From a virus: a stretch of 64,000 nucleotides of DNA. A program made the translations under genes and the position numbers. The notes under the pieces are model-generated. The model was not told the origin of the DNA, ran no database searches, and saw nothing but the letters and a program-made list of their open reading frames with translations. Numbering within the stretch: position 1 is the first letter of the stretch; the number at the start of each line of letters is the position of its first letter. The stretch lies in IMG/VR virus record IMGVR_UViG_3300037510_000343; one strand, given 5' to 3'. Shown piece by piece: positions 1 to 63,779 of this stretch.

Positions 1-760
1 ACTTGTAGCAAGTAGTTTGGCTATCACTAGTGGTAAAGCTTTTCTGCCTACTGTATTACCCAATAGTGGCCGCAAAGTACTGTTAATAGACACTGAAGGT
101 AGAGCTAGAGAGTTCAATAGGCGAGTAAGGAAATTTGGAGGAATAACGGCTAATTACTGTACTGCCAAGCATCCTTTGAAAATATGTGTGTTTTCCTCAA
201 AAGAAGATAGACAGGAAATAGAAAGAGTATTACGGACAGCTTCAATTGACCTTGTTATTGTCGATAGCTTTGCGGGCTTTAGTAATGTCGATGAAAATAC
301 AAATGCCGTATTGCCAGCTTTACAATGGTTATCTGGCTTAGCTTTAGAACATAATGTTGCTATTGTGTTTACACAGTTAGTTAATAAGTCCGAAATAAAA
401 AGCAAAATTACCACTAAAGCTATTCGAGGGTTTAGCGGTATATCTCAATGGTGTGAAATGATATGGGCTTTAGACAAAGATAGTAAAGCTCCAAACGCTA
501 GAAGGTTGTATCAAATTAAAAACAATATTACTAAAGAAGACAACACTGTTTACTTGTTTAATATTGAAGATACTTGTGTGCAGTTTGCTGATAGCTTAAA
601 CACTTTAAATGTTAAGTATCCTAATCGATATAAAATAATTGAAAATAACCCAAAACTAAGCAATAAAGCTATTGCTCAATTAATCCAACAAGAAGAACCT
701 AACACTAAATTAGGCAGCCTAGAAATGTGGCTAAGTCGTAATCGTAGTAAGGTTAATTAA
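1..760 (+). CDS. RecA-fold/AAA_25 (RepA-like) ATPase, 5'-truncated by the window edge
   Basis: The frame is open from the window start. Contains VLLIDTE and Walker B LVIVDS. Clearly paralogous to 60419..61312 (DENT, WALDK, RLYQIKNN). Confidence 0.7.
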   Translation, partial: LVASSLAITSGKAFLPTVLPNSGRKVLLIDTEGRAREFNRRVRKFGGITANYCTAKHPLKICVFSSKEDRQEIERVLRTASIDLVIVDSFAGFSNVDENTNAVLPALQWLSGLALEHNVAIVFTQLVNKSEIKSKITTKAIRGFSGISQWCEMIWALDKDSKAPNARRLYQIKNNITKEDNTVYLFNIEDTCVQFADSLNTLNVKYPNRYKIIENNPKLSNKAIAQLIQQEEPNTKLGSLEMWLSRNRSKVN

Positions 761-1216
761 GTGATCTACTTTTTAATAGAACAAAGCGATTATCGTGCTG
801 TCAAAATAGGATATACAGCTAACCTTGCTATGCGTTTATCTAATCTACAAATAGGTAATGTTAAGCCTTTAGTGTTAGTAGCCATAATTGACGGTAATCA
901 ATTAATGGAAACTATTTTGCATAAACTATTTGAAAAATATCACGTAAGAGGAGAATGGTATAGTTTAACGGGAGATTTATTAAACTTCATTAAGCCCCAC
1001 TTATTGGTTCAAGTCAGTAAAACAATCCTAGATACTCCATTGTTGTCTGAATCTCAAACTAAATTTAAGACTACTAAATCTAAGCGTAATAAAGTATATA
1101 CAGATAACATCTACAAATCGGATAAAGAAATAGCTCTAGCTATTCACAAACTAGAGCCAGATCAACAACTGTATAACTTGATTAACTGGGTACGACGTAA
1201 ACGAGGTAAAAATTAA
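761..1216 (+). CDS. GIY-YIG-like (T5orf172/MUG113) nuclease-domain protein with a C-terminal helical module
   Basis: IYF...VKIGYT...RLSNLQIGN...E..LH..F....VRGEWY signature. Confidence 0.8.
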   Translation: MIYFLIEQSDYRAVKIGYTANLAMRLSNLQIGNVKPLVLVAIIDGNQLMETILHKLFEKYHVRGEWYSLTGDLLNFIKPHLLVQVSKTILDTPLLSESQTKFKTTKSKRNKVYTDNIYKSDKEIALAIHKLEPDQQLYNLINWVRRKRGKN

Positions 1217-1516
1217 ATGCCTTTAATAGATATATCTTACGTCACACATATAGCTACATCTTTGTTGGATAAGCTAATTGGATACCCGCATGTAATAAAG
1301 GTATTAGCGGTACTACCTTCTATTAGTTCTACCGTTATTAATTTTAGGGTATTAGTTAGTACTACAGACCCCGAATTAATTAACAATATTTGGGAGGTAA
1401 GTTCTTCAATAGCACTAGATAAAGAACGACAACTGATAAGAAACTACTCCTTATTTGTGTATGTCACAAACAATATTGATGACATTAAAGATGGAATAAT
1501 ACTTGCTCAAATTTAA
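1217..1516 (+). CDS. hypothetical protein
   Basis: ORF abutting the upstream gene and followed by a terminator. Confidence 0.6.
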   Translation: MPLIDISYVTHIATSLLDKLIGYPHVIKVLAVLPSISSTVINFRVLVSTTDPELINNIWEVSSSIALDKERQLIRNYSLFVYVTNNIDDIKDGIILAQI

Positions 1517-1524
1517 TCATTTTT

Positions 1525-1558
1525 AATCCCCTAATACTTACCTAGGGGATTGTTTTTT
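1525..1558. terminator. intrinsic terminator between convergent genes
   Basis: AATCCCCT...AGGGGATT stem followed by a T-run. Confidence 0.65.
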
Positions 1559-1568
1559 ATTATAGGTG

Positions 1569-8278: not shown

Positions 8279-9493
8279 GTGTGAATAAGTAGGGAAATTT
8301 TTTCTTTATTAATTACAGAGGAGATAGACATGATATTCACGCTTACAGTTGACTCGGATAGTGAAGCAAGCGAGATAGCTGTTATTGAAATACAAGGGTA
8401 CACATCTTCGGCTACTTTTAGGTTTGCACTAACATGGCTAAAAAGTATCACACTAAATGAATCCGCCGTAATTGTCACTCTAACAGATGGTACAGAACAT
8501 CAATTGAAAGTATGCGACGAATAATTAGTTAGCAGCAAACTTACACGTCCAAGTGACTTTTGGATTGAGTGATTAATTTTTAAGCCTCCTAAGTCAATAA
8601 CACAGGAGGCTTTTTCTTTAGTTACTTAATCCAATAAGTCGTATGCTTGTTTCTTTTCTTTGTGTAGCCCTGTTGCTTTAGTAAGTTAGCTATTCTAATT
8701 TCAATAATGTCTTTAATGTAGGTTTCTTTTTTATTAGGAGGATTAATATGCTAATTACAGAAGCTACTAATGCGTTAACGCAATTAGGTTATAAGCAGGT
8801 AACTACACAACAAGGAAATATCTATAATTACTACTGTTTTAAGGGTAGTAATCTAACTGTGACATTGGAAGAAGCATTAGATTATGGATTAAGTGGAAAA
8901 GTTAATCAAATAAGAATTCAAGGTAAGTTTAGTTATTCGCCGGCATTAGTAACCTTCATGTACAAAAGTAGGTTATCGGGATGGCAACCTGTAGATACTA
9001 CTAAAACATTCATGATGGATAACACCCTACATCCCATGTATGGACTAAGTGCACTAAAAGAAGTACTGTCAGGCTTGCAAAGTTTTAGATAGTTATGGAA
9101 GACTTATTAGCACTGTTGGCTTGTTAGGGTGGATTATTGAGAAAATAAGAGACCGAAATAAATAGAGGAGTAGTATGCTGCCTTATCTAATGGTTTACGT
9201 TGTTGGTGGAGTAACTACCTACTTTGTGGCAAAATATCGATTTAGCTTTGTTTATCCACAGCATACTAACAAATTGCTATTCTTAACCCCGATTAAGATA
9301 GAACAAAATCCAGCAGCTTTTGAGAAGTGGGTCAAGGATTCCTACGATATGTGTCTAAAGTTAGGTATTGAGTCTGAGCTGGAGGAATTACAGAATGAGG
9401 TTTATGTAGTTGCTCAGTATATTGAGATTTCGCAGTGGGTGTTTTTGTGGTGGTTAATATTGCTTGAGCTAACTGAGATGTAATTTAAGCCCC

Positions 9494-9529
9494 GTCTTAC
9501 TCTGTGTCTTACTCTGTGTCTTACTCTGT
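9494..9529. repeat. 12-bp tandem repeat x3 (GTCTTACTCTGT)
   Basis: Three exact consecutive copies, intergenic, immediately before a CTATTTATTTCGGAC motif copy. Confidence 0.9.
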
Positions 9530-10756
9530 TCACCTATTTATTTCGGACTCTGATCATGGCAAAACTAATTTCACGCACCACAAACAATCTCGGTATGTGC
9601 ATTGTTGATATCTACCGTCAGCCTGGAGATTTGTACGAGAGTTGGGACATTGAGCCATACAACGACGGAAACCCCACTCGACTACCCGATGCTAGGTATG
9701 GTGTAGATCAGCCTGATTACGGGGATTTGATGGTTGAGAGCTACACCCCGATGGAATTGGTTAAAGTTGTCGAAGCTTGGGATCTAAATGGTTGGACTAG
9801 TTACACAACCAGCATTGAAACAATCGATGGTACTGTTCTAGCTGAGAGGACTAGTTAGTACCGTTAAATAACCCCTATTATTTCCCGCAATCTAATAGGG
9901 GTTAATTTTCTTCGTAGTTAACCATGTTGATTAGGTGAAGACTATGCACCACATTTTCCTCGAATATAGTGAGCTTAATTTTGCTTTCTTTTGTTGTATT
10001 AGTGTTTTGGGTTTTAGTACATTCTACTTTGTTAGCAAAAGACCCACTATCACTAACGCCTTAATGTGGATAGTTTTAGGTTACTTAATTGGGTGTGCAG
10101 GTAGAGCTATTAATTTGTTTTAAAACTAGTGAGGTTAATTTCATGCACGCTAATTGTCTTAACGTCAAACAGGTTTTACATACGTTAAAACGCCAAAGAG
10201 ATAACAGCAATGTTCGTATTGTAAAACGAGTACACTATTTACTTACTTCAGATAAGCTAGCCGAAAACGAATCTGAGTTAGTAGATGTAAGTAATCCAGA
10301 TAACTGGTACTACAGTGGACATACTACTAAGTGCTCCAAAGCTGTGGATAAGTATGTCGCAGAAGTCTCACAACGTATTGCCGACAGCCCCGAACTTAAG
10401 GAGCTTATTGTTTCGGACTCAGATGTAAATTTGATCAATAGATTACTCAAGGTAATTGGTGGCGACGAATACTGGTACTGGTTTTTCAATAAGGATTCAT
10501 AATGAGTAGAAGATTGACGGCGGATGACAAAGCTCAACTAAGAGAGTTTACGGATGTATATCTTATGGAATTTACCGACAAGATTATCGATCCAAATGAT
10601 GGCAAAGAATTCCACGAAGGAATGGCAGCAGGGTTACTATTAGCCGTGGAGATTGTTACTAAGACCGGAGAGCTTAGTACAGCAAGCGCACATGCAATAA
10701 ATGCTTGTGTACAAAGGTGTATAACTATAGCAGACTATTCGGCTTAGTTATCGTGT

Positions 10757-10788
10757 GTCCGAAATAAATAGACCTTATTATTTCGGAC
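10757..10788. repeat. inverted pair of the dispersed GTCCGAAATAA motif
   Basis: GTCCGAAATAAATAG-AC-CTTATTATTTCGGAC. Confidence 0.9.
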
Positions 10789-11125
10789 GCATTAAAATTC
10801 CTTACCTATACAAGAGAAAGCAATGCAGACATCTAGGTACAACGGGCTAACAGTCGGTAATTCTTTTTACGGGGATCGCCACATAAGTTTTGTACATCCA
10901 GATCTCCCGGAAGGGTTCACACTAGATTGTGCCAGATGGCATGTGTCTCAAAAGAATCCAGGAGTAATACTGTACAAAGCCAAAGGCAAGCGGTTGATAG
11001 TTGCGGTGAAAGACAACACAATTTTCGATGGCGAAAATTGGGACATGTACGGGCGTGAGTATTTCTATGCTCAAGAAAATATTGAGCAACGTTGGCAGTA
11101 AACACATCTTGTCCCAGGAGATAGT

Positions 11126-11290
11126 ATGCGAGTAATTGGTTTTCTAGTTATTGGTGCGATTTTGGTTGGAAGTACGGTAGTACATTATTCTCAACGTGAG
11201 ATAGTGACAGCCAAGGTAGTAGATACGCAGGTGAAGTGAGTTAGTAGTAATTCAGATCGATACATCGTATCCGTTAGTAGCTGTAAATAA
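11126..11290 (+). pseudogene. truncated membrane-anchored protein gene with in-frame TGA
   Basis: AGGAG RBS; translates MRVIGFLVIGAILVG...TAKVVDTQVK*VSSNSDRYIVS, with TGA at 11237. Confidence 0.4.
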
Positions 11291-11291
11291 A

Positions 11292-11642
11292 ATGGAAGAC
11301 ATTTACTTGACTCCAGAAAAAGCTCAAGCACTAGCAAATGGACTTGATAAAGCTAGTCCGTTGAAAGTAGTTTGCGTGACTACTTACTTGCTGGTAGATA
11401 CTCGTGAACGAGAATTACAACCTACTGAGATACCTTTGCCTAAAACTCCTAGTACCGTACCAGTAGAGTATCGAGATTATTGGCGGATTCTAAATAAGAA
11501 TCAATTTAGCCCCGAAGTAAAGATTCCATTAATTAAGTTGATTCGTTTTTTGAGTAAGCTAGATCTGCGGGCTAGTAAGGAAATAGCCGATTATCTTTGC
11601 AAAGACAGAAACGATTACTTTGAGGAGTTGAAAAGCAAATAA
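11292..11642 (+). CDS. protein with a ribosomal L7/L12 C-terminal-like motif
   Basis: KIPLIKLIRFLSKLDLRASKEIAD resembles KI.VIK.VR..TGLGLKEAKDLV; N-terminus is paralogous to 18238. Confidence 0.5.
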   Translation: MEDIYLTPEKAQALANGLDKASPLKVVCVTTYLLVDTRERELQPTEIPLPKTPSTVPVEYRDYWRILNKNQFSPEVKIPLIKLIRFLSKLDLRASKEIADYLCKDRNDYFEELKSK

Positions 11643-11865
11643 ACAACCAAGGAGGGCTAAAAGGGTATTGTTTTAGCTTTTCTGATGACCATATCTTGCA
11701 GCAGTTTGCTCGAAATTTAGTGGATATCACTTGCCCTAGTTTAGATGAAGAAAAATTGGAGCAACTAGTTGAGCTAATAATTCCAAATAACAACTAGATT
11801 GTACGGGGAGGCTTCTCCCCACTAGAGTCTAGTACTCAAAACTTTACCATACAGAGGTTTTTCTT

Positions 11866-13848
11866 ATGGAGTTTAGACAATTCAAGCAGCAAGTACATCG
11901 CTCTTTCGATGCATTAGGGTTAGATCAATCACATTTGTACTACACAGATATTACCAAGGACGAATTGTGGAACGCCTACATTAATTCGTTCCCCCCAGCA
12001 ACCCGCCAAGAACATAACTGCAATGCTTGTCGGCAGTTCGTTAAAAACTATGGAAATATAGTATCAATTACCTCAGACTACGAGGTAAAAACATTCTGGG
12101 ATTTTGCTATTGACGACCCAGAATACCAACAAGTCGCAAATGCAATGGCTGAGTTGGTGTTATCAAAGCCAATCGTTGGAGTATTTATTCCAACACAGGC
12201 GAAGCTAGGTACGGATTACAACTTCGAGACCCCAACATTAAGGTGGGAACACCTGTTTTATCAGCTACCCGCTCGGTTTATCGGACGAGTAAGTCGAGAC
12301 GAGGTAGAGCTTAAGAAGTCTGAGTACCGGGACAATAAGAACGTATTCAAACGTTCATTGGAAGAATTAACACTAGCTTCTGTTGGAACAGTGCTGGAGC
12401 TTATTAACGATCCTGAAGTAAACCTTTATCGAGGTGTAGAATTTAAACCTCTACTAGAATCTTTTGAGCGACACTTAGTTAGTTTTGGGGAAACCCCAAC
12501 TGAATTGCGAGATAACTATTGTTGGTATTGGGCAACTAAATCTAATCCTGTTACTCGTATCCGTAATATGTCAATTGGCACTTTACTCATTGATTTAAGT
12601 AACGATGTCAACTTAGATGTGGCTATCCGCAAGTTTGAATCACTGATGGACTCAACTAAATATCGTCGCCCTAATAGTCCAGTTATCTCATCGAGGATGA
12701 TTCAGGATGCGAATAAGATAATCAGCGAGCTAGGACTAACCTCAGCATTGAAGCGACGGTTTGCTACTCTCGACGATGTTCCGGTTACTAATATGTTGTG
12801 GGTCAACCGCAACGGTAGTACCCCCGATGTTTTTGGGCAGCTTCAGAAAGATTTGGTCGTGAATCCTAAGTCACTAAAGGCTCAGGAAGTTTCATTAACT
12901 CAGTTTGTGACGAATGTGTTACCCGTGGCGGAAGGCATTGAAGTATTGGTTGAGAACCGCCATACTTCAAACCTGGTTAGTCTTTTCACTGAGACCGAAA
13001 CAAATAGCGGTTCTCTGTTCAAGTGGGATAATCCTTTTAGTTGGTGTTATCGTGAGGGCCTTGCGGACTCACTAAAGGAAAAAGTAAAGAGTGCTGGAGG
13101 GAAAGTTGAAGGCAAGTTAAGGATTAGTCTTGAGTGGTACAACACAGATGACCTTGACCTTCATGTACTCGAATCAAACGGGGCACATATCTACTTTGGT
13201 AACAAGAAAAGTTATTACACTTACGGGGAGCTTGATGTTGACCAGAATGTGAATGGAGAGACCCGTACTCCTGTAGAGAATGTTATCTATCCTTACAACA
13301 GCACCCTAATAGATGGGGAGTACAAGGTGGTAGTTAACAACTACACTCACCGGGAGAACAAAGATGTGGGGTTTCGTGTGGAGGTTGAATACGAGGGGGA
13401 AATCTATGAGTTCACTTACGATGTATCGCCGGCATACAAACGGAATACTGATGTTGTTAGTTTCACTGTAACTAAAGAACAAGTAAAATTAAACGCACAA
13501 TCTACTGGAAAAGTAAACAGTAAAAATGTGTGGGGAATTAACACTAACAAATTCTATCCCGTTAATGCAGTAATGTGGTCTCCAAATTACTGGAACAATA
13601 ATGGTGTAGGTAACAAGCATCTAATCCTCGGGATTAATGAGGCTAAAAACAATGAGCCGGTAAGAGCACTATTTAATGAGTTCTTAAGGGCGGATTTGAA
13701 TAAGCATAGTAAAGTGTTTGAGACTTTAGCCAGTAAGCTAGTAGTACCTTATTGTGATGATCAACTAAGCGGTTTGGGCTTTAGCACAACAATGAAAAAT
13801 GATTTTGTTGTACGAGCTAATAGTAGATTAATCAAAGTAGTTGTTTAA
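11866..13848 (+). CDS. large conserved-type phage protein with HNCNAC motif and a YfaP/DUF2135-like DLDLHV domain
   Basis: QEHNCNACRQFV, W.NTDDLDLHV, GELDVDQN, PVENV motifs. Confidence 0.65.
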   Translation: MEFRQFKQQVHRSFDALGLDQSHLYYTDITKDELWNAYINSFPPATRQEHNCNACRQFVKNYGNIVSITSDYEVKTFWDFAIDDPEYQQVANAMAELVLSKPIVGVFIPTQAKLGTDYNFETPTLRWEHLFYQLPARFIGRVSRDEVELKKSEYRDNKNVFKRSLEELTLASVGTVLELINDPEVNLYRGVEFKPLLESFERHLVSFGETPTELRDNYCWYWATKSNPVTRIRNMSIGTLLIDLSNDVNLDVAIRKFESLMDSTKYRRPNSPVISSRMIQDANKIISELGLTSALKRRFATLDDVPVTNMLWVNRNGSTPDVFGQLQKDLVVNPKSLKAQEVSLTQFVTNVLPVAEGIEVLVENRHTSNLVSLFTETETNSGSLFKWDNPFSWCYREGLADSLKEKVKSAGGKVEGKLRISLEWYNTDDLDLHVLESNGAHIYFGNKKSYYTYGELDVDQNVNGETRTPVENVIYPYNSTLIDGEYKVVVNNYTHRENKDVGFRVEVEYEGEIYEFTYDVSPAYKRNTDVVSFTVTKEQVKLNAQSTGKVNSKNVWGINTNKFYPVNAVMWSPNYWNNNGVGNKHLILGINEAKNNEPVRALFNEFLRADLNKHSKVFETLASKLVVPYCDDQLSGLGFSTTMKNDFVVRANSRLIKVVV

Positions 13849-13863
13849 CTAAGGAAAAACATC

Positions 13864-50523: not shown

Positions 50524-50546
50524 TAAGAAAAGTAATTGGTAATGGA

Positions 50547-51405: not shown

Positions 51406-51560
51406 CATGCTAAAGGATTTTAGATTCGATGGTATTCTTATTCAAGAGCCAAAGTATAGATACATAGGCTATGAGAAACTTTGGTATGACGGTTATTATC
51501 ATAGTTTTGGTCTTTACTTAATATCTATACACTGGCATTACAAAGGTCATTATAAATAGA

Positions 51561-51814
51561 TTATTTTCTAGCGCCTCGCACTACCAAGAACTTAGTCGGC
51601 ACATTACTGTGAATTACAGCTAATAATCTATGTGCGCCATTAAATAACTTATTATCTTAAAGCAGCGCCTAATCCCCATTCATTGTTAAGTATTCTATCG
51701 GAGTACTTAGTTACTCTATCTAAATCTGGGATTCTATTGTGAGCTTGTTCATCTAAATATTGTTGTGCTAATTCAGGAGTAATTAGTTCAACACTTAATG
51801 TTGGTTTTTTACAT
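51561..51814 (-). pseudogene. frameshifted ParB-N-like domain gene (not in the ORF track)
   Basis: Minus strand reads VELITPELAQQYLDEQAHNR...VTKYSDRILNNEWG, then after a frameshift DNKLFNGAHRLLAVIHSNVPTKFLVVRG (cf. DGQHRL..V...VVRG). Confidence 0.65.
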
Positions 51815-52289
51815 ATTAAATAAGATGTTTATTAAAGATAGATACCGTAAAGATGCTTTCAAGTTACAGTATCAAATAGATGAGAAATTGTCCCCGCTAT
51901 TTAATGATTATATTAGACGGGGTTATTCAATACGAGAAATAAGCCATTTAATTTTATTGACTGTATTTGAGCTAGAACTAGATAACGTAATGGAGTATAG
52001 CAACTTTAATGATTTCCGCGAAGATTACTACGCTTATTTAGAACAAGAAAAATCCCACTTACAAACTACCTTATTATTTCGGACTCTTATTGGCTTAACT
52101 ATCGGTTTATTTTTAGGCATATTAAGTGGTGTAATACTTTAATAAACTAATGCGAGTTAAAGCAGAAGAAATAAAAGTAGGTAGTACTGTATTACATCCT
52201 GAACTAAGTTACTACGGTAAGGTTACTTATGTGCTTGTGAAAGGTAATGAAGTGTCTATTGGTTTAGCTACAGGATACTACAATCAAGT

Positions 52290-52673
52290 TTGTGCGTTTG
52301 TTGTAAACAAAGAAACATTATTAGAGGTATCAAAATGAATCAAGAACAGTTTCTACAGTTCCACCGCGAAACAGTAGATAAGATGCACGAGATTTGTCGT
52401 GCTAAAAACTCCGATTATTGTGGAGGTAAGAGTAACAATAATGCCTTTGCTAATTTCGAGCTAATTGAAGTATTTGGTGTAACTACTACAGAGGTGGGTT
52501 TATTTACTCGGTTATTAGACAAAATGTCCCGCATTGCTAGTTATCTTAAGCAAGGTAGTTTACAAGTAGTAAATGAATCAGTAATTGATACGTTATTAGA
52601 CGCTGCTAATTACTGTATTTTGTTAGCCGCTTATTTGCAATCTAAGAAAGAGTCCGAAAATAATAGAGGATGA
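52290..52673 (+). CDS. DUF1599 / nucleotide-modification-associated all-alpha NTP-PPase-like protein (likely start ATG 52335)
   Basis: KNSDY.G...AFANF, RLLDKMSRI, ESVIDTLLDAANYCIL. Confidence 0.7.
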   Translation: MCVCCKQRNIIRGIKMNQEQFLQFHRETVDKMHEICRAKNSDYCGGKSNNNAFANFELIEVFGVTTTEVGLFTRLLDKMSRIASYLKQGSLQVVNESVIDTLLDAANYCILLAAYLQSKKESENNRG

Positions 52674-53431
52674 TTATGGCAGATTTTACTTTAGAGTTAG
52701 CCAAGGAATTAGTTACCTCGCAAGAACAGTTTCCAATTGATTTTGAAGATGCTTATTTGTGGCTAGATTATTCTAGAAAGGATAATGCAAAAACAAGTTT
52801 TTTGAAGTGTGGTTTTATTGAGGGCGTAGATTACACACTCCTGCGAGTTAAGGAGCGTGTCAATGGCAACAATGGTGGTGGCATAGTTTCCAAAGAAACA
52901 ATTTATTTAACTGTAGATTGTTTTAAGCATTGGGGAATGATGATAAATAGCGAAAAAGGTCGTCAGATACGATTATATTTCTTGGAATGTGAGAAGCAAT
53001 TAAAAACTATTACTACTAAACCCAAATCTGCTATTGAATTGTTTGAGTACCACTTAAATATTGCTAAAGAACACGAACAACGCCTTCTACAAATAGAAGA
53101 AAACAACAAACGTTTAACGGAATCTCAAGAAGTTCTAGAAGCTGAAACTGATTTCATTAAAGAAACGCTCATCGCAATAGACGAAGAACTTTCAGCCAAC
53201 ACAGCGGAGCTAGAGAGGTTCAGCAATGGTCATGGGACTTTTTACTCTATTGCTGGTTGGTGTAGCAAGATAGGACTGAAAAAAGATTTACCTTGGATGA
53301 CTCGTCAAGGCCGTTTAGCATCTGCCCGTACTCGTAACTTGGGCATCACACCAGTCAAGGTAAATGACCCTCGGTATGGTACTGTTAACACGTATCCTGA
53401 CTCCGTACTAGAAACACTTAATTGGGAATAA
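52670..53431 (+). CDS. antirepressor-like protein (same N-domain as 14342)
   Basis: FPIDFEDAYLWLDYSRKDNAK, KGRQIRLYFLECEK; C-terminal DPRYGTVNTYP. Confidence 0.75.
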   Translation: MIMADFTLELAKELVTSQEQFPIDFEDAYLWLDYSRKDNAKTSFLKCGFIEGVDYTLLRVKERVNGNNGGGIVSKETIYLTVDCFKHWGMMINSEKGRQIRLYFLECEKQLKTITTKPKSAIELFEYHLNIAKEHEQRLLQIEENNKRLTESQEVLEAETDFIKETLIAIDEELSANTAELERFSNGHGTFYSIAGWCSKIGLKKDLPWMTRQGRLASARTRNLGITPVKVNDPRYGTVNTYPDSVLETLNWE

Positions 53432-53435
53432 AAAT

Positions 53436-53846
53436 ATGGCTAGTGTATTGCAATCCTGGGTAGCAGATCTACCGCTAATGCAACAAAGTGTTTTGTTATC
53501 TGCTGTACGTGGAGTAGATGGTGTTAGTAAGGAAAACTACACTAAATACATTACTCGTAGAATAAGGAACTTAGTTCTAGTAGACGCTAGACCAATGTCA
53601 GATCACTCATTTATGCGAGCTAATGAAGGTCGCTTAATTGATGAGGTGGCGCAGTTCTTGCGCGATTATGATGCTTATCCTGTTCATTATATGTTGCATT
53701 TGCTCCAAGCAATGGAAGTAATTGGATATAAGCATCCCGTCTCCATCGTCAGAGAAACATGGATAACGGCTTACCAAGAAATTGTTCATTCGTTTCATTT
53801 GAATATCGAGACAGAAGAACAGCTAGACTTAAGACTACCTAACTAA
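53436..53846 (+). CDS. conserved-type hypothetical protein
   Basis: SVLQSWV..LPLMQQSVLLSAVRG.DG...P.HY..HL..A.EVIGYKHP pattern. Confidence 0.65.
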   Translation: MASVLQSWVADLPLMQQSVLLSAVRGVDGVSKENYTKYITRRIRNLVLVDARPMSDHSFMRANEGRLIDEVAQFLRDYDAYPVHYMLHLLQAMEVIGYKHPVSIVRETWITAYQEIVHSFHLNIETEEQLDLRLPN

Positions 53847-53888
53847 TTATTATTTCGGACTCTTTTTCCACACACTTAAGGTTTTACT

Positions 53889-54875
53889 ATGTCAGAAGAA
53901 ATTCAATACCTACAATTGCTCGACCGCGTTTTGAAGACAGGAAGCAAGAAAACTATCTTCTCTCCCACAGATAAGCTAGGCACAATCGAGCGCAACAAAT
54001 ACAAAGAAGTAGACAAAGATAGCAAATACATTCTGTCTGTATTTGGGGCAATGCTTACATTTGATTGCTCGAACGGTACAATCCCTATCTACACAAGTAA
54101 GGCTGTGTACTACCCTGGAGCCTTCAAAGAGATGCTCTGGTTTCTGACAGGGAATGGCAATGTAGCGGCTTTACATCAACAGAAAGTCCCGATCTGGAAT
54201 GGGTTTGCGTATAAGTATTGGTTGAAGAAAAATAATTTAACAGCCGACAAGTTTGCATTCGAGGATTTTGTGAATTGTTACCTGAACAAAGAGAAGTTCA
54301 TCATTCCTGTGCCGTATACCGATTTCACAGACTACTGTACGAGCCAAGGACACATCGATCAGACTCGTTGGGTGATTGATACCGTTCAGAAAACTCCTGA
54401 CCGTAAGAGCTTCGTGGTATCTGCCTGGAATCCTGCTCGACTGTATGGGATGTCTGAGATATCAGGGCTAGAGAGTGTCGTGCTAGCCGCTTGTCACTGC
54501 GAGCACCAAGTAGTGGTGAATGATGGAAGGTTGAATTTGCGCGTTAGCATCAGATCGTCAGATACAATTTTGGGTTTACCATTCAATGTTTGTCAATACG
54601 GTCTTTTGTTGCACATGTATGCAAAGTGTACTGGATTCGAGCCAGGGACTTTGCTTATTCATTTAACAGATGCTCACATATATAGCGACCAAATTGAGAA
54701 CTCTCTGGTGCAAATTGCCAAGAAAGATACTGAACTCAAGCCCTTTCCCACACTATCTATCGTTGATCGAGGACAAAAGTATCTAACTGATTTTGTGTAC
54801 AGCGACTTCAAAGTACACAGTTATTATCCTGAAGAATCACTATCATTTCCGTTAACATTAGTAGGGGGTTATTAA
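53889..54875 (+). CDS. thyA: thymidylate synthase
   Basis: EMLWFLTG, SAWNP, LAACH, RSSDTILGLPFN, DAHIY. Confidence 0.93.
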   Translation: MSEEIQYLQLLDRVLKTGSKKTIFSPTDKLGTIERNKYKEVDKDSKYILSVFGAMLTFDCSNGTIPIYTSKAVYYPGAFKEMLWFLTGNGNVAALHQQKVPIWNGFAYKYWLKKNNLTADKFAFEDFVNCYLNKEKFIIPVPYTDFTDYCTSQGHIDQTRWVIDTVQKTPDRKSFVVSAWNPARLYGMSEISGLESVVLAACHCEHQVVVNDGRLNLRVSIRSSDTILGLPFNVCQYGLLLHMYAKCTGFEPGTLLIHLTDAHIYSDQIENSLVQIAKKDTELKPFPTLSIVDRGQKYLTDFVYSDFKVHSYYPEESLSFPLTLVGGY

Positions 54876-55469
54876 TGGTAATAACATATCAGATAATAAG
54901 CACCATTTACCAGTTAATAGACATGCTTCAACATGAAGATATCATGCCAGAGATCTCCAAGATATTAAAGCAACTAAAAGATGGGCAAGTTAAAGAAGCT
55001 TATCGGAATTTGCAGTACGTAATAGAGAAACCCGATTTAGATCCCCAGCTAAAAGCTGAACTAGCTAATATTAGTCTGTCATTATCTATCCGCATACTAA
55101 GTCAAAAGTAATGACTAATTTTGACGACATTCAGAAACAGATTAGTAATTTAAAAGCCGAAGGAGTAGACGTATCTAGATTGGAGCATCAACTACATTGG
55201 GCTAGACGATTAAGGAAAACGTCCGCAAATCTCAAACAATTACAAGACGAAGTACAACACTTAATAGATAAAGGAACTAACTGATGTCTGACGATTTTCG
55301 CAACGAAGCCAAGGTTGTTCGCATTCAAAAAGAAAGTGAGCAATCTGTTCAACCAGAATCAGACAAGGATGTAGATAAGGAAGAGTTACTTAAGACTAAC
55401 AAAAAAATTGCTCAACACGATATAGAGACAATAAAAGAAATAACCCTCGACAATCAAGACTAAGTAAAT

Positions 55470-55521
55470 GTCCGAAATAAATAGGATATGTATTTATCTG
55501 ACCCCCCTATTTATTTCGGTC
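55470..55521. repeat. inverted pair of the dispersed motif (long spacer)
   Basis: GTCCGAAATAAATAG...CTATTTATTTCGGTC. Confidence 0.8.
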
Positions 55522-55543
55522 TCATTTCATTACCTGATTTATT

Positions 55544-56089
55544 ATGACTAACAATTTAGGATGCATGACAGCTCAAGAACCAATAGTTGAGTATTATTGT
55601 GATGATTTATTCTTTACAGGAGAAGTTACACCTAGCTCAGCTCATCAACTAGCTAAGTTAGTAAGGAAAATTGAAGCTGAGAGAGAAAATTCAACAGACA
55701 AGGATATTACCTTATATTTATCTTCTCCTGGTGGGGAAGTAAATTCCTCCATGAGAACCCACGACATTATCAAAAAGTCTAGTTTGAATGTTGCGATAAT
55801 TGCAGAGGGTATGGTTGCTTCAGGGGCTACCTTATTGATGTGTGCTGGAAAGTCTGTTTGTATAGCAGAGAATGCTTTCTTGATGTTGCACGAAGCTCAG
55901 TCTTACTTTCAAAATACATATACTAATAACAAAAATTACTTAGCTTATGTTGATCGCTTAATGACTAAGATTGTGGATATTTATAATACTAGGCTCAAGC
56001 AACCCATCAGTAAAAGTGATTTAGCATTTGATTGGTTTATTGACTCAAGGACAGCACTAGATCTTGGTTTAGTAGATAAGGTAATTTAG
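55544..56089 (+). CDS. ClpP-like serine protease
   Basis: LSSPGGEV, VASGAT (Ser), LMLHE (His), DWFID..ALDLGLVDKVI. Confidence 0.85.
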   Translation: MTNNLGCMTAQEPIVEYYCDDLFFTGEVTPSSAHQLAKLVRKIEAERENSTDKDITLYLSSPGGEVNSSMRTHDIIKKSSLNVAIIAEGMVASGATLLMCAGKSVCIAENAFLMLHEAQSYFQNTYTNNKNYLAYVDRLMTKIVDIYNTRLKQPISKSDLAFDWFIDSRTALDLGLVDKVI

Positions 56090-56892
56090 TTATGTTGGAT
56101 AGTACGAGTAAGTCTTTCCAGGCGATTAATTCAGTATTAACTTCCGATGATCCGTATTTAGCTATTGATAAGGATAGTCCCATAGCTATTATTTTTAGTG
56201 CTACATCTCAGCCTGATAATATCTCACTTGTCAAATTTCTTCAAGTTTACAAAGATAATAAAATAACTGATTGTATTATTGCTTGTAAGACCGTTAGCTT
56301 TCTTTCGGTATGTCCTGAGCTATGGGACTATCCGATGTGCATTGTGAATGGTGAGCACCAATGTGTAGTCGCTTATATTTTGTTGCCGAACAAAGAAATA
56401 GAAGACGACCAAGTTAGAACATTTGCACAACAATTTTCTCAGTTTGGTAAAGTAGGTATTTTCTGTGAGATAGCAGGATGAAAAAATCAGAGTTATTAGC
56501 AAAACTCGAGACAATCCCCGATGATGCTGAGTTATTTATCCTAGACGAAGAATTTGATGTGTGGGTTAAGGTCACACATGTGGGAGCTACTACATTACAC
56601 AAGTTTGATACAACAGACCGCTATATTGAACAAGAAAATTGGGTGTACGACCCCACTGAATTACATTCGCCTATTAACGCTATTTGTATGTTATGAGTGA
56701 GACGCCCGAAAATAATAAGGCACCATGGGTAATACCTGTGATTCGATGGTGCAACATAAATAATTGGACACAACCAGAGTATCGAGAGCTAGAAGGTATG
56801 TGGTATGCTTTTCCTCCTTATGAGGATTCTAAACAGCCCGTACCTTATTTTGTTGATTTGTGTCAGAGATATTTAGGACGAGACAATAACTT

Positions 56893-57381
56893 ATGACAAT
56901 TAGCATAATTGCGGCTGTTGCGCTTAACGGGATTATTGGTAATGGTGGGAAACTACCTTGGCGGAGAATTGATGTAGATATGCAGCACTTCTTTGACACA
57001 ACAGTGAACAATACAGTGATTATGGGGGCTACTACGTTTCTTGATGACTTAAAAGGAAGATCCTTGTACGACCGTCAAAATGTGGTGTTAACTAATAATC
57101 GCGTAAATGAAGTATCTCGTTATGTGAATATTGAGGTAGCCACCAATCCAGAACAAGCACTTGGCCTTAGTTCTGAATTTAATGATGTATTTGTTATTGG
57201 TGGAGCGAAAATATACCAAGTTTTTCTACCAATGGTAAACACTATGTACATCTCCCACGTTTTAAGTGTTTACGAAGGAGATACTTACTTTCCAGCAATA
57301 GATTGGAGTGAATGGAAGTTAGAGTCCGAAATAAATAGGGATGATGTGGTACATATAAATAAGTACGTAAGGAAAGTGTAA
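56893..57381 (+). CDS. folA: dihydrofolate reductase
   Basis: IIAAVALNGIIG..GKLPW, DMQHF, VIMG..T, R.NVVLT, VIGGAKIY, EGDTYFP. Confidence 0.95.
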   Translation: MTISIIAAVALNGIIGNGGKLPWRRIDVDMQHFFDTTVNNTVIMGATTFLDDLKGRSLYDRQNVVLTNNRVNEVSRYVNIEVATNPEQALGLSSEFNDVFVIGGAKIYQVFLPMVNTMYISHVLSVYEGDTYFPAIDWSEWKLESEINRDDVVHINKYVRKV

Positions 57382-57384
57382 TTA

Positions 57385-57861
57385 ATGTTGTTAGCAATTG
57401 ATCCGGGATATCGTAATATGGGCTACTGTGTGGGGGATTCAAGCACACTAAAAGTAGTTGTCAGTGGCACCATAGTTACTAAAGGGGATAATTTTCCGGA
57501 TCAATTGCGACAACTATATCAAGAATTAGGGTACTTAATTTGTGAGCACAATATTGTTAGTTTGGTTTATGAGAAACCTGTTTATGCAGTAGGGCATAAA
57601 ACCGGCAATAAAGTACAACAGTCTATTGCTATATTGTTATTGCTTTGCGCTATTTACAGTATTCAAGATATAACCACATATACTCCTAGTGAAATTAAGC
57701 TATTACTAACTAACAGTGGTAAGGCATCTAAAATAGATATCCAGCAAAGCATATTAAAATACTTACCAGATAGTACATTTAAAGTAGATCACGAAAGTGA
57801 TGCTATTGGAATGTACATTTGTTGGTATAACAGTTGTGTTAATACTGTTCTTAAACCATAA
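57385..57861 (+). CDS. ruvC: Holliday junction resolvase
   Basis: LAIDPG...GYC, VYEKP, YTPSEIK...SGKASK, DHESDAI. Confidence 0.9.
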   Translation: MLLAIDPGYRNMGYCVGDSSTLKVVVSGTIVTKGDNFPDQLRQLYQELGYLICEHNIVSLVYEKPVYAVGHKTGNKVQQSIAILLLLCAIYSIQDITTYTPSEIKLLLTNSGKASKIDIQQSILKYLPDSTFKVDHESDAIGMYICWYNSCVNTVLKP

Positions 57862-59208
57862 AGGGATTATTGCGGGTAAATTACACACCGAAAACACCTT
57901 TAATAGAAATGGAGATTATATTACTAATCGCAAAGCTATTCAAGCTAAATGCCGCGAAGAAGTATACAACTTAGTACTGCTAACTACTTCAGATATAGAA
58001 GAACGCTTAATTGGTAATCAAAAAGATTTATTAGTATCTAATTACCCCAAGTCATTAGATGACTATTACTTTAAGGTAGGTAATACTAAGTTGTTTCCGA
58101 TTGAAGCATTAGTAATACCGATTTACGGTAAGTGGCATTATATGGACAGATTTGAACCACCTACTGAACCTATGACACCCGAGGATTATGCAAGATGCAA
58201 ACTAGAGCTAGAGACTTGATGGAATGGCTGGTATTAGACGATATACCCCTGGGTAGCACTATTACATTAGATGAGATTTATAGCCTGTACTTTTATGCCC
58301 GCATTCCTCCTGATCAAAATAAAGAAAAGATAGTAGGAACAGTGATTAACAACTTAATAGACAGAGGATTTATTACAAGAGAAGAGAACACATTTACTAA
58401 GCGTTACTATATGGATCGCTAACAGTATGGCAGTAACACTAATTCACGCAGAAGCTACAGATGAGCTTCTAGCTTCGCTGTGTGTACACAACAACAAAGC
58501 ATTTAATTTAGGCACAATAAAACAACAATATCCTATCTGGGATAAGAATGGTAAAAAGTATCAAGACATAGCAGAAGCTTATTTGACTTACTACAAAGAG
58601 ATATCTAGTTACCGTAGAGAAGAATTTTGTGGCAGACTTTATTTTAAACGATTTACGTTGTATCCACATTTAGTTACTCAAATAACTAATCAAGGTGGAT
58701 TACATTGGTTTTCTGGTAAATCAATACCAGATAATGAATTACCGGATATTAGCAATTACTCATTACGTCGTAAGTTAATATCTGCGTACAAGTCAGCTTT
58801 AGATCAACCCCCACACAGATTTATTCTTTAGTTATGTCAAAAGTCCCAGCAATAGATGTTTGGTTAGATCAAATATTGTCTTCTTATTTAATGCAGTATC
58901 CTTATTCTTATCAAAGATTTTTTAGAAACGAGATAAGTGTAACTAAATATCGTACTGAAGATTCTATAATTACTTACAAAAATAAAATAATATCTACTTT
59001 TAATTCAGACACAAAAGAAGGTGTTATCTATTTAGTAAGCCCCGAAATTACTTACCTTAGACGCATTAATTCAATACTTAGATGTCTCGACTTTCAACAA
59101 AAGCAGTTTACTATTAAGAGCAATAAATATTACAGCAACAATATTGAGTATCCGTATACCGAGTATCGGTTTGTAATCAAACACGAATTAGAGGATATTG
59201 TATTTTAA
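57797..59208 (+). other. cluster of hypothetical CDSs (57797, 58195, 58427, 58834)
   Basis: Co-oriented, abutting ORFs. Confidence 0.55.
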
Positions 59209-59984
59209 TGAATGATATTGTAGTAAAACCTAAATTGGAAGTAGAAAGTTTGTCAACAAATCAATACTTTATTTACGAGATATACAAACAAAGTAATTTG
59301 ACAAACCTTAATAACTTATCTGTTCTGGCATACAAAGAGTGGTTGTGGAAGAATATTTGTGCTGCTACTAGCAATTCGTCCGAAATAAAGACTGAGCTAT
59401 TCAAGTTATTGTCCTTTTCTACTAGATATCCCAATAAGGTACTCACAGTAATATGTGACGATTCAGAAGTGTCTCATGGGGAAACAATAATCGAATGCTT
59501 AAATTGGTTAAGGAAACCAACACTAACTAAGATAATCTCAGGAGGTCAACACGGAGCTGACTTAGCGGGATTACAAGCTGCTAAGGAATTAGGTATACCT
59601 ACTGGTGGTACTGCTCCAAAACATTATCGAGTATGTTTACCTGATGGTAGTGATTCTACTAATCCAGAATTAAAGGAATATGGATTAACAGAGTCCGATA
59701 GTTATTCGTATCAACCCAGAACAATTAAGAATGTATTGGATAGTGATGGTACTGTTTGGTTTGAATACGATAAATCTCCTGGTGGTAAATTAACTATTAG
59801 TACGTGTCGTAAACATGATAAACCTTATTTAATTAACCCAAGTGCTATTGATTTATTTTATTGGGTTAAGACTAAACATATTACTACGCTTAATGTAGCT
59901 GGAAATAGAGTAAGTGATTTAAACCCCGATATTGTTGCAACTACTTTTAATACTATTAAGGAAGCTTTCAGATATACTACTTAA
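59208..59984 (+). CDS. SLOG-family (putative MoCo-carrier-like) protein with a degenerate DUF4326-like N-part
   Basis: KIISGGQHGADLAGL..A..LGIPTGG.AP, RT..NV.DSDGT, LNVAGNR. Confidence 0.8.
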   Translation: MNDIVVKPKLEVESLSTNQYFIYEIYKQSNLTNLNNLSVLAYKEWLWKNICAATSNSSEIKTELFKLLSFSTRYPNKVLTVICDDSEVSHGETIIECLNWLRKPTLTKIISGGQHGADLAGLQAAKELGIPTGGTAPKHYRVCLPDGSDSTNPELKEYGLTESDSYSYQPRTIKNVLDSDGTVWFEYDKSPGGKLTISTCRKHDKPYLINPSAIDLFYWVKTKHITTLNVAGNRVSDLNPDIVATTFNTIKEAFRYTT

Positions 59985-60418
59985 TCATGTTAGAAATTAA
60001 ATACATTTCAGCCACATCACTAAGTGCTTTAGAAGAAATACTCAATTCGCAGTATCTTAATAACGGTTATTCCCCAGTGGGTAACGTTACTTATCTCGAA
60101 GACAGATTAATGCATTATGTGCAGGCCGTAATTAAGCCCGTTAAAGAACCTCGCCCAACAATCTCACTAGAACCGCCAGCACTAAATAAGCCCCGCTTGA
60201 GTTGATACTTACTTATTGTTTCGGACTCCTATTATCTCCCTCTATTATTAAAAATGAAGAAAAAATTGCCACTCCCCTTTTTTATAATAATTTGCTAATA
60301 TTATTATTATTACCTTTAATCCCTAGACAATAATAGAAAATAATAATGTATACGCGATAAGGGTTTCAGGCTATGAATTATTAATTGTGAAACTTGAATA
60401 ATAAAAATAATAGAGCGT

Positions 60419-61312
60419 ATGAGAAAGATGATCAAGGATTATTCAGAGATGCCAGTGTTACCCACTCAGTACGTGGCAGGGATGTTTCCCATAGGTAAAG
60501 TAAGTGCCCTAATTGGCAATGGGGGAGTCGGAAAAAGTTTTAGCTTGTTGCTGGCTAGTATGTCTGTAACAAGCGGGTATACTTTCTTACCTAGAGAGGA
60601 CTACCCTATTTGGGACGACAAGAAAGTCATGCTAATAGAGACCGAAAATCGCAGCAGGACTTTTTATGACCGCTTAGTACTAGCAGGTGCGACTATTGAA
60701 AACTACTATGTTCCTACTGACTGCTTAACTAACACAATTTGTTTTTCGGACGATAAAGATAGAACTTCGATAGAAGAAGAAATTCAAGATCCAGAAACAG
60801 TTATGGTAATAGTTGATTCTTTAGCTGGATTTAACGGAGGTATCGACGAAAATACAGTTGCTGCTAGTGCCTCAATTAAGTGGTTAGGTAACTTGGCCCA
60901 GAAATACCACAAGGCGGTAGTTATAAGTCATTTCCTGAATAAAACAGAAATAGCTAGCAAAATAACTACTGAGAATATGCGAGGGCATAGTAGTTGCCAA
61001 CAGTATATTGAGTTAATTTGGGCGATTGATAAAGAAAAAGGTTCTGAAAAAGTAAAAAGACTTTATCAGATTAAAAACAATGTTAGTGAGTTGGATGATA
61101 CTGTCTACAAATTTAAACTCACCAATGCTAGTGCGGAGTTTTTAAATGAACCTTCGGCAGCCGAGTTAAAGGGTAAAGCATTGCGAATTAAAATCTATGA
61201 GTCAAATATACAGAAATCCGATAAAGAGATAGCTGAGTTAATTCATGCTACTGAGCCAGACAGTATTATCTACAACTTAATTGCTTGGGTAAAACGTCGT
61301 CGCAAAGGTTAA
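60419..61312 (+). CDS. RecA-fold/AAA_25 (RepA-like) ATPase
   Basis: GNGGVGKS, LIETEN, VIVDSL, ISHFLNK; paralogue of 1..760. Confidence 0.8.
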   Translation: MRKMIKDYSEMPVLPTQYVAGMFPIGKVSALIGNGGVGKSFSLLLASMSVTSGYTFLPREDYPIWDDKKVMLIETENRSRTFYDRLVLAGATIENYYVPTDCLTNTICFSDDKDRTSIEEEIQDPETVMVIVDSLAGFNGGIDENTVAASASIKWLGNLAQKYHKAVVISHFLNKTEIASKITTENMRGHSSCQQYIELIWAIDKEKGSEKVKRLYQIKNNVSELDDTVYKFKLTNASAEFLNEPSAAELKGKALRIKIYESNIQKSDKEIAELIHATEPDSIIYNLIAWVKRRRKG

Positions 61313-61605: not shown

Positions 61606-62076
61606 ATGGTAATTATTTTAAATAAAAATACTGATATATTTAAGTGGAGATTTCAGGAACCTTATTCAACAGCTTTGGTTGTACCGGTTAATGGATTAGG
61701 AGTTGCTGGAGCAGGACTAGCTAAACAGTTTAAGAATAGATATCCTAATTGGTATGAAGATTACAACCAACAATGTAATTTGAGTAAAGACTTATACAAC
61801 GGAAAGCCTAGTCTGTATAAAGAGCCAAGTATTAAACAGTACTTTATTAATTTTCCAACCAAACAGAATTGGCTGAATAATAGTCAGTTAGAGTTTATTG
61901 AATTAGGACTACGTAATTTAGTTGAATTAATAGAACCTAACCACGAATTAGTTGAGATAGTATTTCCTGCCATTGGATGTGGATTGGGGCGGTTAAAGTT
62001 TGAAGATGTCCGAAATGAAATAGACGTTGCATTTGACGGCTCACCACTTGATGTTTATCTTATTCCACCAAAATGA
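61606..62076 (+). CDS. macro domain protein (ADP-ribose binding/hydrolysis)
   Basis: VPVN..GVAGAGLAKQFK..YP, INFPTK..W, FPAIGCGLG.L. Confidence 0.9.
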   Translation: MVIILNKNTDIFKWRFQEPYSTALVVPVNGLGVAGAGLAKQFKNRYPNWYEDYNQQCNLSKDLYNGKPSLYKEPSIKQYFINFPTKQNWLNNSQLEFIELGLRNLVELIEPNHELVEIVFPAIGCGLGRLKFEDVRNEIDVAFDGSPLDVYLIPPK

Positions 62077-62660
62077 CTACTAGATACTTGATGGTAATTG
62101 ATGTCGAATCAATGGGATTGTATGGCGAAGGTTTCGCTGTAGCTACTGTTATTTATGACAGATTGAATAAAGAGTTTCTAGAGAAAAGGTTAATTGTTTG
62201 CCCACACGATACAGCTACTAATGGGCATTACACTAAAAGTGATTACGAATGGATTGAAGCTAATGTAATTCCTTATCTAGTTGAAGATGATGATCGAATA
62301 GATCTGGATTCTCCGCGAGAAGTTCGTGATACTTGGTATCACCATTACCAAATGGATAAGCTGTACTGTGGCCCAGAGAATATATCTATTACAGATAATC
62401 TGTCCGTATGGGCAGACTGTGGTTATCCTGTAGAGAGCAATTTCCTAAGACAAGTAGCGATAGAGAATCTAAGAGACAGATCTTGGTTGATGCCTTACCC
62501 CCTTAATGAGATAGCTACTGTTAGGGCATTAGTTGGGTTGCATCCTACTGCTAGTTACGACTTACCAAAAGAACAACAACATAATCCATTATCAGAGTGC
62601 AACTATATTGCTGTGAAGTTGGCTGAATGGTTAGATACATTAGCACCCCTAACAATGTGA
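62073..62660 (+). CDS. DEDDh-type 3'-5' exonuclease-like protein
   Basis: VIDVESMGL and HNPLSE motifs. Confidence 0.6.
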   Translation: MTTRYLMVIDVESMGLYGEGFAVATVIYDRLNKEFLEKRLIVCPHDTATNGHYTKSDYEWIEANVIPYLVEDDDRIDLDSPREVRDTWYHHYQMDKLYCGPENISITDNLSVWADCGYPVESNFLRQVAIENLRDRSWLMPYPLNEIATVRALVGLHPTASYDLPKEQQHNPLSECNYIAVKLAEWLDTLAPLTM

Positions 62661-62666
62661 GGTTGT

Positions 62667-62960
62667 ATGCCCATAACTGCATTGCCAGAACAAATAACAA
62701 TACCTGATTTTTTTCCTACCCCTAGTCTTGACCATGGCTGGAATGTTATCTTGCATAACGATGATATTACGCCTTTCCAAATAGTTGTCGAAGCACTAAT
62801 GATTGTGTTGGGATACGACAAACCCCGCAGTGAAGCTATTATGTGGGAAGCTCACACACTAGGTAAAGCGTCAGTTATTGTGACCTCCAAAGTGTTGGCC
62901 GAACAATACAAAGAACGCTTAGAAGCTTATCGTTTAACTATTACTATCGAGGAAATTTAG
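62667..62960 (+). CDS. clpS: Clp protease adaptor ClpS
   Basis: VILHNDDITPFQIVV..L, IMWEAH..GKASV, AE.Y...L..Y.LT.TIE. Confidence 0.9.
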   Translation: MPITALPEQITIPDFFPTPSLDHGWNVILHNDDITPFQIVVEALMIVLGYDKPRSEAIMWEAHTLGKASVIVTSKVLAEQYKERLEAYRLTITIEEI

Positions 62961-62962
62961 TC

Positions 62963-63779
62963 ATGGGAATTATTAACAGATCGCAGTCAGTATCCGATCA
63001 CAAGAACAACCGCAATAACAAGGCAGATGTTATCAAGCACATCGTGCCTCAGTTACGAGCTGCCCGTGCAGAACACCAACGCTTACTAGACGCCCACACA
63101 CGTATCTGTGCTGAGCTAGACGGAGACTCGGGGTCTATACGCCAGCGTGAGTATAACTCTGAACAGAAAGTCAAGGCACTCGAAAACGAATTACGTGCCG
63201 TGGGACTGAATCCGGCTGACTATTAATTTTGTACAATTTCGATTAAGGCCTGCTGAACAGGTAGGCCTTGTGTTTGTACCTGGGAAAAACTATGTTCGAG
63301 CAACCAATCTGTTATAAATACACTTCTTTGGGTGTACTACATCAAATTACTCCGGCAACTGAAGAAGGAAAGAATTTTTTGTTACGGGAAGGCTGGAGTA
63401 CTTCAAAAGAAGAAGCTATGAGGGTGTATTTGAATGTGCCCGACATAACAAAATGTGATGAAAAGAATAAATGAGTAAGTACAAAGTAGTATTAGTAGAC
63501 GATAGATTTTATCGAGAATCAATCACTTCTTACAGAATTCACGATACAGACACATGGGAAGGCATAGCCATAGTCCGAAATAATAAGGACGCTTATCTTT
63601 TTGTAAATGCGGCTAATTTGATTTCTGAATTAGAGAAGTTAGTAATACACTGGCGAAATATTAGCAGTTATACTGGAGATCCTCAATACGATTCAGGTTG
63701 TGATTCTACTTACGGTATTTGTGCGGATTCACTAGAAGAATTGATACAAGAATATGGAAACACAACAAGTAGTAGATAG
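62963..63779 (+). other. small hypothetical CDSs (62963, 63268, 63471)
   Basis: Co-oriented short ORFs. Confidence 0.55.

Follow-up and report, generated by a model that had tools for sequence, protein, structure and literature searches.

A polar word repeated at even strand-wise intervals along a phage genome as a candidate priming site for its T7-type primase

What reads a short sequence that recurs more than fifty times in one phage genome? The question is posed by a 64,000-nt stretch of viral DNA (IMG/VR record IMGVR_UViG_3300037510_000343, hereafter the window), along which a short polar sequence, here called the word, is dispersed on both strands. A first-pass annotation had put the number of cores at about 57, with one or two expected by chance, and had read them as a phage-specific cis-code for genome organisation, self-recognition, recombination or packaging, among other options. 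We compared the window with the related phage genomes G001, G002, G006, G011, G016, G020 and G021 and with cultured phages.

An exact count gave 57 cores, including every position that the annotation had named. Alignment of the cores yielded a polar consensus of 15 bases, eight of them nearly invariant, with an information content of about 22 bits:

388..63580, both strands (31 plus, 26 minus): dispersed polar word (A)GTCCGAAA(T/C)AA(A/T)(A/T)AG, 57 copies of the exact core GTCCGAAA, mean same-strand gap 2106 bp (plus) and 2263 bp (minus)

The density is ca. 0.9 cores per kb counting both strands. In 100 dinucleotide shuffles of the window the mean was 1.15 cores and the maximum 5, in agreement with the annotation's estimate, and the enrichment is about 50-fold. 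Inside open reading frames (ORFs) of at least 200 bp there were 37 cores (65%), as against a mean of 1.73 (maximum 6) in 300 protein-preserving synonymous-codon shuffles and 1.16 expected from codon-order shuffles. The enrichment thus persists when codons are preserved which, together with the conservation described below, bears out the earlier claim that selection acts at the DNA level. Gene-internal cores were located in all five genes for which they had been reported, namely dnaE (35353, 36249), nrdJ (44756, 45243), folA (57324), the ThiF/E1 gene (24418) and uvsE (19901), and they are translated as SE[IT], VRN, [IV]SD or FRT depending on the frame. In S-E-[ITKN] peptides the serine is encoded by TCC in 17 of 33 cases, whereas TCC accounts for 8% of serines overall. 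The other 20 cores lie outside ORFs, though non-coding DNA makes up 7.7% of the window. The GAC variant GACCGAAA, also anticipated by the annotation, occurs 6 times against 0.9 expected. No core in the window is preceded by G, because GGWCC is totally avoided (0 copies, 29.5 expected). A scan against Rfam returned no match at the gathering score.

On each strand of the window the word recurs every ~2.1 kb (plus) or ~2.3 kb (minus). The coefficients of variation of the gaps, 0.48 and 0.68, are lower than for random placement (P<0.001 and 0.028), and those in G001 (0.59/0.60) and G002 (0.61/0.61) are likewise below random placement (P from 0.028 to <0.001 over the three genomes); the median for 290 abundance-matched control 6-mers was 0.97. 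When strand labels were shuffled with close convergent pairs of copies held fixed, the evenness was lost in G001, where none of 5000 shuffles was as even, and in G002 (P 0.0002). Pooled over six carrier genomes, 89 same-strand pairs of copies lay within 750 bp of each other where 214 were expected; for opposite-strand pairs at 100-750 bp the counts were 172 observed and 187 expected. In this pooled set, copies on one strand avoid each other within about 1 kb, an effect that is not seen between strands. The window, G001 and G002 together have 18 GACCGAAA variants, which keep well away from cores on their own strand (mean percentile 0.78, P 1e-5) and are placed randomly with respect to cores on the other strand (mean percentile 0.49), so that they behave as working members of the same set. 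Five of those in the window each fall in a gap between same-strand cores:

9151, 12993, 30394, 36991 and 60640 (9151..60647), plus strand: GACCGAAA variants

Word orientation is independent of the direction of transcription; 93% of the coding bases of the window are on the plus strand, where 31 of the 57 cores lie, and genic sites including the GAC variants comprise 28 sense and 13 antisense copies. No genome examined showed a strand switch of word orientation along its length. The strand-wise spacing indicates a role in DNA replication, which was absent from the options considered by the annotation. The even per-strand spacing, the excess outside ORFs and the convergent pairs described below all go beyond it.

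Individual copies turn over. Aligned orthologous genes of G001 cover 29 window sites, of which 14 occupy the identical place there, at a fourfold-degenerate identity of 0.36 and with 4.9% of aligned 8-mers identical. With G002 only 3 of 25 sites are shared. Despite this turnover the density remains at 0.7-0.9 per kb across the three genomes. Single copies are thus kept in the short term by purifying selection and replaced in the long term, at an approximately constant density.

To follow the word outside the window we examined nine genomes that have a primase-helicase pair of the window's kind, namely the window, G001, G002, G006, G011, G021, the Pseudanabaena phage Pam2, G016 and G020. The word of the window recurs unchanged in G001 (111 kb, 101 cores) and G002 (127 kb, 85 cores). 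More distant relatives carry versions that share GAA and the purine tail and differ in the 4-nt prefix. Aligned on the shared part, the versions are:

GTCC-, both strands: window, G001 and G002
GTAA-: G006, 87 sites, label-shuffle P 0.0006
CRTA-: G011, 143 sites, label-shuffle P<0.001
GRTA-: G021, 122-159 sites, label-shuffle P<=0.001 for three of six patterns
KRCA- (KRCAGAAAARR): Pam2 (66 sites) and PA-SR01 (56 sites), with 2 and 3 sites in the reversed control

A scan that used spacing only, over 1,488-3,004 GAA patterns per genome, recovered the own words of G001, G006, G011 and G021 at z values of −3.8 to −4.5. Altogether an evenly spaced word was found in six of the nine genomes, an enriched word without clear spacing in one, and none in two.

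Copies of the word also occur as close pairs. There are 7 pairs within 60 bp in the window, 11 in G001 and 8 in G002. Each of these 26 is convergent, with no divergent example, and 24 of them lie wholly or in part outside ORFs. In the window the partners are 24-29 bp apart, the pairs fold as hairpins (z −3.3 to −5.5), and six of them start 10-28 nt past a stop codon. The window pairs, with one looser candidate, are:

10757..10788, both strands: convergent pair forming a hairpin, 10 nt past a stop codon, fold z −5.5
14256..14289, both strands: convergent pair with a U-rich tail, immediately 5' of the Ant-like gene 14342
18970..19002, both strands: convergent intergenic pair
29180..29216, both strands: convergent intergenic pair downstream of a Sak4-like gene
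37784..37815, both strands: convergent pair between dnaE and the Rha-like gene 37850
39795..39829, both strands: convergent pair downstream of an RNA ligase gene
50547..50580, both strands: convergent pair with a U-rich tail, 5' of the Rha-like gene 50692
55470..55521, both strands: looser pair of GTCCGAAA on plus and a GACCGAAA variant on minus (55514-55521)

A U-rich tail is present in only some pairs, and in G006 a single pair of this kind occurs; the pairing is therefore a lineage-specific second use of the word. A terminator scan of positions 9000-20000 left the three pairs there uncalled, and no excess of sigma-70 promoters was found in that region. At 29180..29216, contigs from three other sequencing runs have one more A immediately behind the core at 29187, and the stretch just downstream has diverged; the core is thus preserved next to a variable tail and neighbour. 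The window has four genes of the Rha/Ant family (14342-15079, 37850-38593, 50692-51405 and 52670-53431), each immediately preceded by a word or pair; in G001 the family counts about ten paralogs.

The genes of the replication region that come into consideration as readers are:

31954..32769, plus strand: DNA primase of T7 gp4 type, 271 aa, with a Cys4 zinc ribbon and a Toprim domain with EGEK and DxD motifs; proposed reader
32769..34487, plus strand: helicase of the RecA/RepA family (AAA_25), 572 aa, directly following the primase; possible co-reader
34487..37774, plus strand: DnaE polymerase, with PolA in its place in G001; not the reader
30182..31093, plus strand: exonuclease of the replication/recombination module; candidate reader if the word acts like Chi

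The predicted structure of the primase (pLDDT 84) has its best fold match in the T7 gp4 primase (1nui, E 8e-7). The primase-helicase pair was present in every carrier genome examined for it, the exonuclease and helicase were present in all nine compared genomes, and a profile search returned 48 primase clusters at E<=1e-30. The replicative polymerase was dismissed as reader because at one and the same locus the window and G002 have DnaE and G001 has PolA (L104:920-2653), and this swap left the word unchanged. Two binders proposed by the annotation are not favoured either: the small RepA-like AAA_25 proteins with a helix-turn-helix tail are missing from the carriers G011 and G021, and outside the window the 808-aa ORF 5779 turned up in G001 and G002 only. 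Most relatives have HU-like and XRE genes. The HU-like gene does not track the signal, being present in G020, which shows no word, and an XRE gene is present in G016, which shows none either. G020 is sister to the word-bearing clade in the terminase tree (support 99/98) and belongs to another clade in the helicase tree (100/100). Its lack of such a word ties the signal weakly to the replication module and weakens the packaging role that had been put forward. The remaining candidate readers are the primase, the helicase and the exonuclease.

From these comparisons we lean, by a narrow balance, towards the word being the recognition site of the phage T7-type primase/helicase. The primase, probably together with the adjacent helicase, would start RNA primers at the word on the lagging-strand template, and would need a site of 8-15 nt rather than a trinucleotide. 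If forks run in both directions everywhere, sites would be needed on both strands, and a second site on the same strand within ~1 kb would add little and decay. Lagging-strand priming predicts just such a signal, required on each strand every 1-3 kb and redundant at distances below 1 kb. Intergenic pairs would likely serve each strand at no expense to coding and may also act as terminator or stabilizing hairpins. The template could be read in two ways. Either GTC would be used as in T7, with an A/T-rich 3' flank and a pppAC primer, or the enzyme would read the pyrimidine-rich complement and make a pppGAAA... primer after a variable 4-nt block that is not copied. As template triplets with a central pyrimidine from which a purine primer could start, GTC, GTA, RTA and RCA would fit if the register is shifted by one base, the GAC variant would not, and the opposite strand would fit too.

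Known primases offer partial precedents. Active T7 priming sites consist of GTC with an A/T-rich 8-nt 3' flank and lie at intervals of ca. 1-6 kb, none below 1 kb (PMC12839067), a range that the window gaps match. The T7 gp4 sites are given as 5'-(G/T)2GTC-3' with an A/T-rich 3' discriminator (PMC12839067), and here too GTC is combined with an A/T-rich flank, in a window that encodes a primase whose closest structural counterpart is gp4 itself. As a putative priming site, the word differs from the T7 pentanucleotide in its eight near-invariant bases, its enrichment, its presence on both strands throughout and the lack of a 5' G/T preference. Primase triplets include GTC for T7 and GCA for SP6, and the T7-type primase AtTwinkle has a two-base element that is not copied (PMC5737085). 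The primase-polymerase of NrS-1, an AEP enzyme, uses the 8-nt site 5'-TTTGGTTA-3', proposed to mark a specific initiation site (PMC8718748). These two enzymes show that recognition by a primase can extend to 8 nt, or include more than one base that is not copied; unlike that of NrS-1, the window enzyme is of the zinc-ribbon/Toprim type and the word tiles both strands.

Several observations weigh against a priming role. The known zinc-ribbon/Toprim primases read 3-5 nt (PMC5737085), and a strict T7 register on GTC does not accommodate the GAC variant. For the window by itself the label shuffle at fixed pairs was not significant (P 0.13), and opposite-strand pairs at 100-750 bp were also below expectation (ratios 0.44, 0.79 and 0.40). 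For G021 the label shuffle reached significance with only three of the six patterns tried, and the Pam2 word, while enriched, lacks even spacing (best z between about −2.1 and −2.2 among 2,573-3,004 GAA patterns). G016 and G020 showed no enriched, evenly spaced word despite their primase-helicase pair (best z ~−2.2); the seed TAAGAGAT in G016 showed no even spacing, and ACGAAA patterns in G020 were neither clearly above the reversed control nor evenly spaced. Single-stranded paired copies would fold to hairpins and could hide from the primase. Finally, changes in the word and divergence of the primase both track the phylogeny, so that any co-variation of the two may reflect no more than shared descent.

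A broader proposal, to which we assign slightly less than an even chance, is that a family of large cyanophages has evolved a private genome-wide priming code in which a T7-type primase reads a lineage-specific word of 8-15 nt and primes phage DNA only. The genome itself would then specify where primers start and how long fragments become, the ~100 sites per lineage being rewritten within genes as specificity drifts. Such a code would confine priming to phage DNA. If it exists, the choice of priming sites and the control of fragment length can be read from sequence as a per-strand grid, and a virus practises self-recognition in replication. The five natural versions with their matched primases could reveal directly what sets specificity, and Pam2 and PA-SR01 are in culture. 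If another protein reads the word, it is still a strand-specific genome signal of which we found no description. Among the matches listed in searches of the main texts of openly accessible papers, neither this word nor strand-wise spaced phage words were found, and none of the matches listed in a text search with GTCCGAAA was related. The accessible part of the paper on Pam2 (PMC9382816) does not mention the word.

The strongest competing explanation, though in our estimate an unlikely one, is a Chi-like or loading signal for a phage exonuclease, recombinase or helicase, used in recombination-dependent replication or fork restart, for which both orientations would be needed. Chi sites of RecBCD and AddAB are read by host enzymes; the classical site is a polar 8-nt sequence that is over-represented in genes and skewed to the leading strand, and Chi sites in general are 5-8 nt long and recognized stochastically. 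The word is similarly polar and is found on both strands irrespective of transcription, an exonuclease and a helicase are universal among the nine genomes, and a reader in the replication module explains the G020 result as well as a primase does. Unlike Chi, the word is specific to phage lineages and switches strand along none of the genomes, and Chi sites are not known for mutual avoidance; the same-strand dead zone of ~1 kb better suits control of fragment length. No RecBCD/AddAB-like gene is annotated in the window or among the 82 scanned proteins of G002.

Less likely again is a site for a protein that binds double-stranded DNA, either a nucleoid organizer or a stoperator-like regulator (Rha/Ant, XRE or HU-like) tiling the genome. 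The asymmetric 15-bp form with its A/T tail would suit such a protein, as would the intergenic enrichment (20 of 57 cores in the 7.7% non-coding DNA), the copies just upstream of all four window Rha/Ant genes and the HU-like and XRE genes of the relatives. Stoperators of mycobacteriophage L5 resemble the word in being numerous asymmetric sites of 13-15 bp found genome-wide in lineage-specific versions, but they are intergenic and oriented with transcription (PMC9283540). The word, in contrast, is 65% genic and occupies both strands regardless of transcription (31 and 26 copies with coding almost entirely on plus; 28 sense and 13 antisense), and no integrase match was found among the scanned proteins. 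A double-strand binder would not predict avoidance limited to one strand, and the distribution of the candidate proteins fits poorly, HU-like and XRE genes being present in G020 and G016, respectively, which show no word, and the small AAA_25 helix-turn-helix protein absent from the carriers G011 and G021.

We regard it as improbable that the word marks programmed single-strand nicks in virion DNA of the sort known from T5, phiKMV-like phages and phage tf. The known nick motifs are likewise asymmetric, dispersed and phage-specific, with lengths of 7-17 nt, yet they lie on one strand only, at ~4-14 per genome (PMC3517423), whereas the word has ~0.9 copies per kb about equally divided between the strands. 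Nicks at convergent pairs 24-29 bp apart would risk breaks, and a dedicated nickase common to the carriers was not seen among the shared genes.

A host-read signal accumulated by the phage, such as an uptake sequence, a host Chi or a HIP1-like repeat, is very improbable, since the Pam2 version of the word, with its 66 copies in Pam2, occurs 0, 0 and 1 times in Pam1, Pam3 and Pam5 (130 kb in total), which share its host strain (PMC9382816), although lysogeny genes are present in two of these three phages. This supports the annotation's notion of a phage-specific code, and the reader is probably not of the host. HIP1 is absent from the window (0 copies), yet it is the top word of a Nodularia phage, 2AV2, in which the GTCCGAAA word was not seen; the Rfam result points the same way. 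Uptake sequences come in dialects and form hairpin pairs after genes, where they serve as terminators. The resemblance extends to the intergenic enrichment and, for the uptake sequences of Neisseria and Pasteurellaceae, to a frequency of ~1 per kb, a core of 8-10 nt and preferred protein frames (PMC2817400). Unlike them, the word resides in a phage, follows the phage lineage rather than the host, avoids itself on the same strand and has another sequence.

As judged from its genes, the window is part of a large, uncultured, lytic siphovirus-like phage. It encodes a terminase, DnaE, primase, helicase, exonuclease, NrdJ, ThyA, FolA, RuvC, UvdE and the four Rha/Ant proteins, and no tRNA was found in it. 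G002 (127 kb, 99% complete) encodes capsid, portal and a long tape measure protein, and its 82 scanned proteins gave no match to a sheath or integrase. The host is probably a cyanobacterium. The closest cultured matches of helicase and capsid are in the Pseudanabaena phages Pam2 and PA-SR01 (24% and 31%), that of NrdJ is in Nodularia phages (37%), and Rha best matches a Planktothrix plasmid (52%). Restriction sites avoided in the window include TTCGAA, GGWCC and TGCGCA, a pattern typical of filamentous cyanobacteria. The runs containing the window are labelled soil metagenome, and no RNA runs were among those listed for it. Searches of cultured phages with DnaE and TerL gave no close relative (best identity <=40%), and scanning genome and metagenome contigs with TerL yielded distant matches only, with at most one core in each of five loci checked.

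The 52 of 80 primase-related loci that were at least 8 kb long were also scanned, and a clear enriched word was found only in G001, G011 and one unrelated group (L177, L178, L184, L188, L198, L206 and L208). That group has dense CCGAACAATT, with 28 copies of CGAACAA in 17.5 kb of L177, and a long AAA_25-bearing ORF (>700 aa) at the primase match that is probably a fused primase-helicase. In L198 some CCGAACAATT copies are full palindromes that resemble a LexA/DinR box.

Other regions of the window deserve mention. Beside the terminase region, ORFs of 239 and 808 aa (5038-8205) that were seen only in the window, G001 and G002 gave no Pfam or PHROG match, and the longer one, 5779, no Atlas match either. 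The small AAA_25 ATPases at 60419-61312, 17-760 and 761-1216 have a C-terminal helix-turn-helix-like tail, which also occurs fused to a T5orf172 nuclease domain. Protein 60419 shares 92% identity with the orthologue in G001, more than the terminase does (84%), which suggests recent exchange or strong constraint. A conserved cluster at 22317-27027 with ThiF/E1-like and PcfJ-like genes is retained in G001 and G002 and, in part, in G011, and resembles a PRTRC-type ubiquitin-like cassette. At 44128-47304 a class II ribonucleotide reductase, followed by a cobalamin adenosyltransferase gene, contains a LAGLIDADG-like insert (residues 594-647) that is likely an intein.

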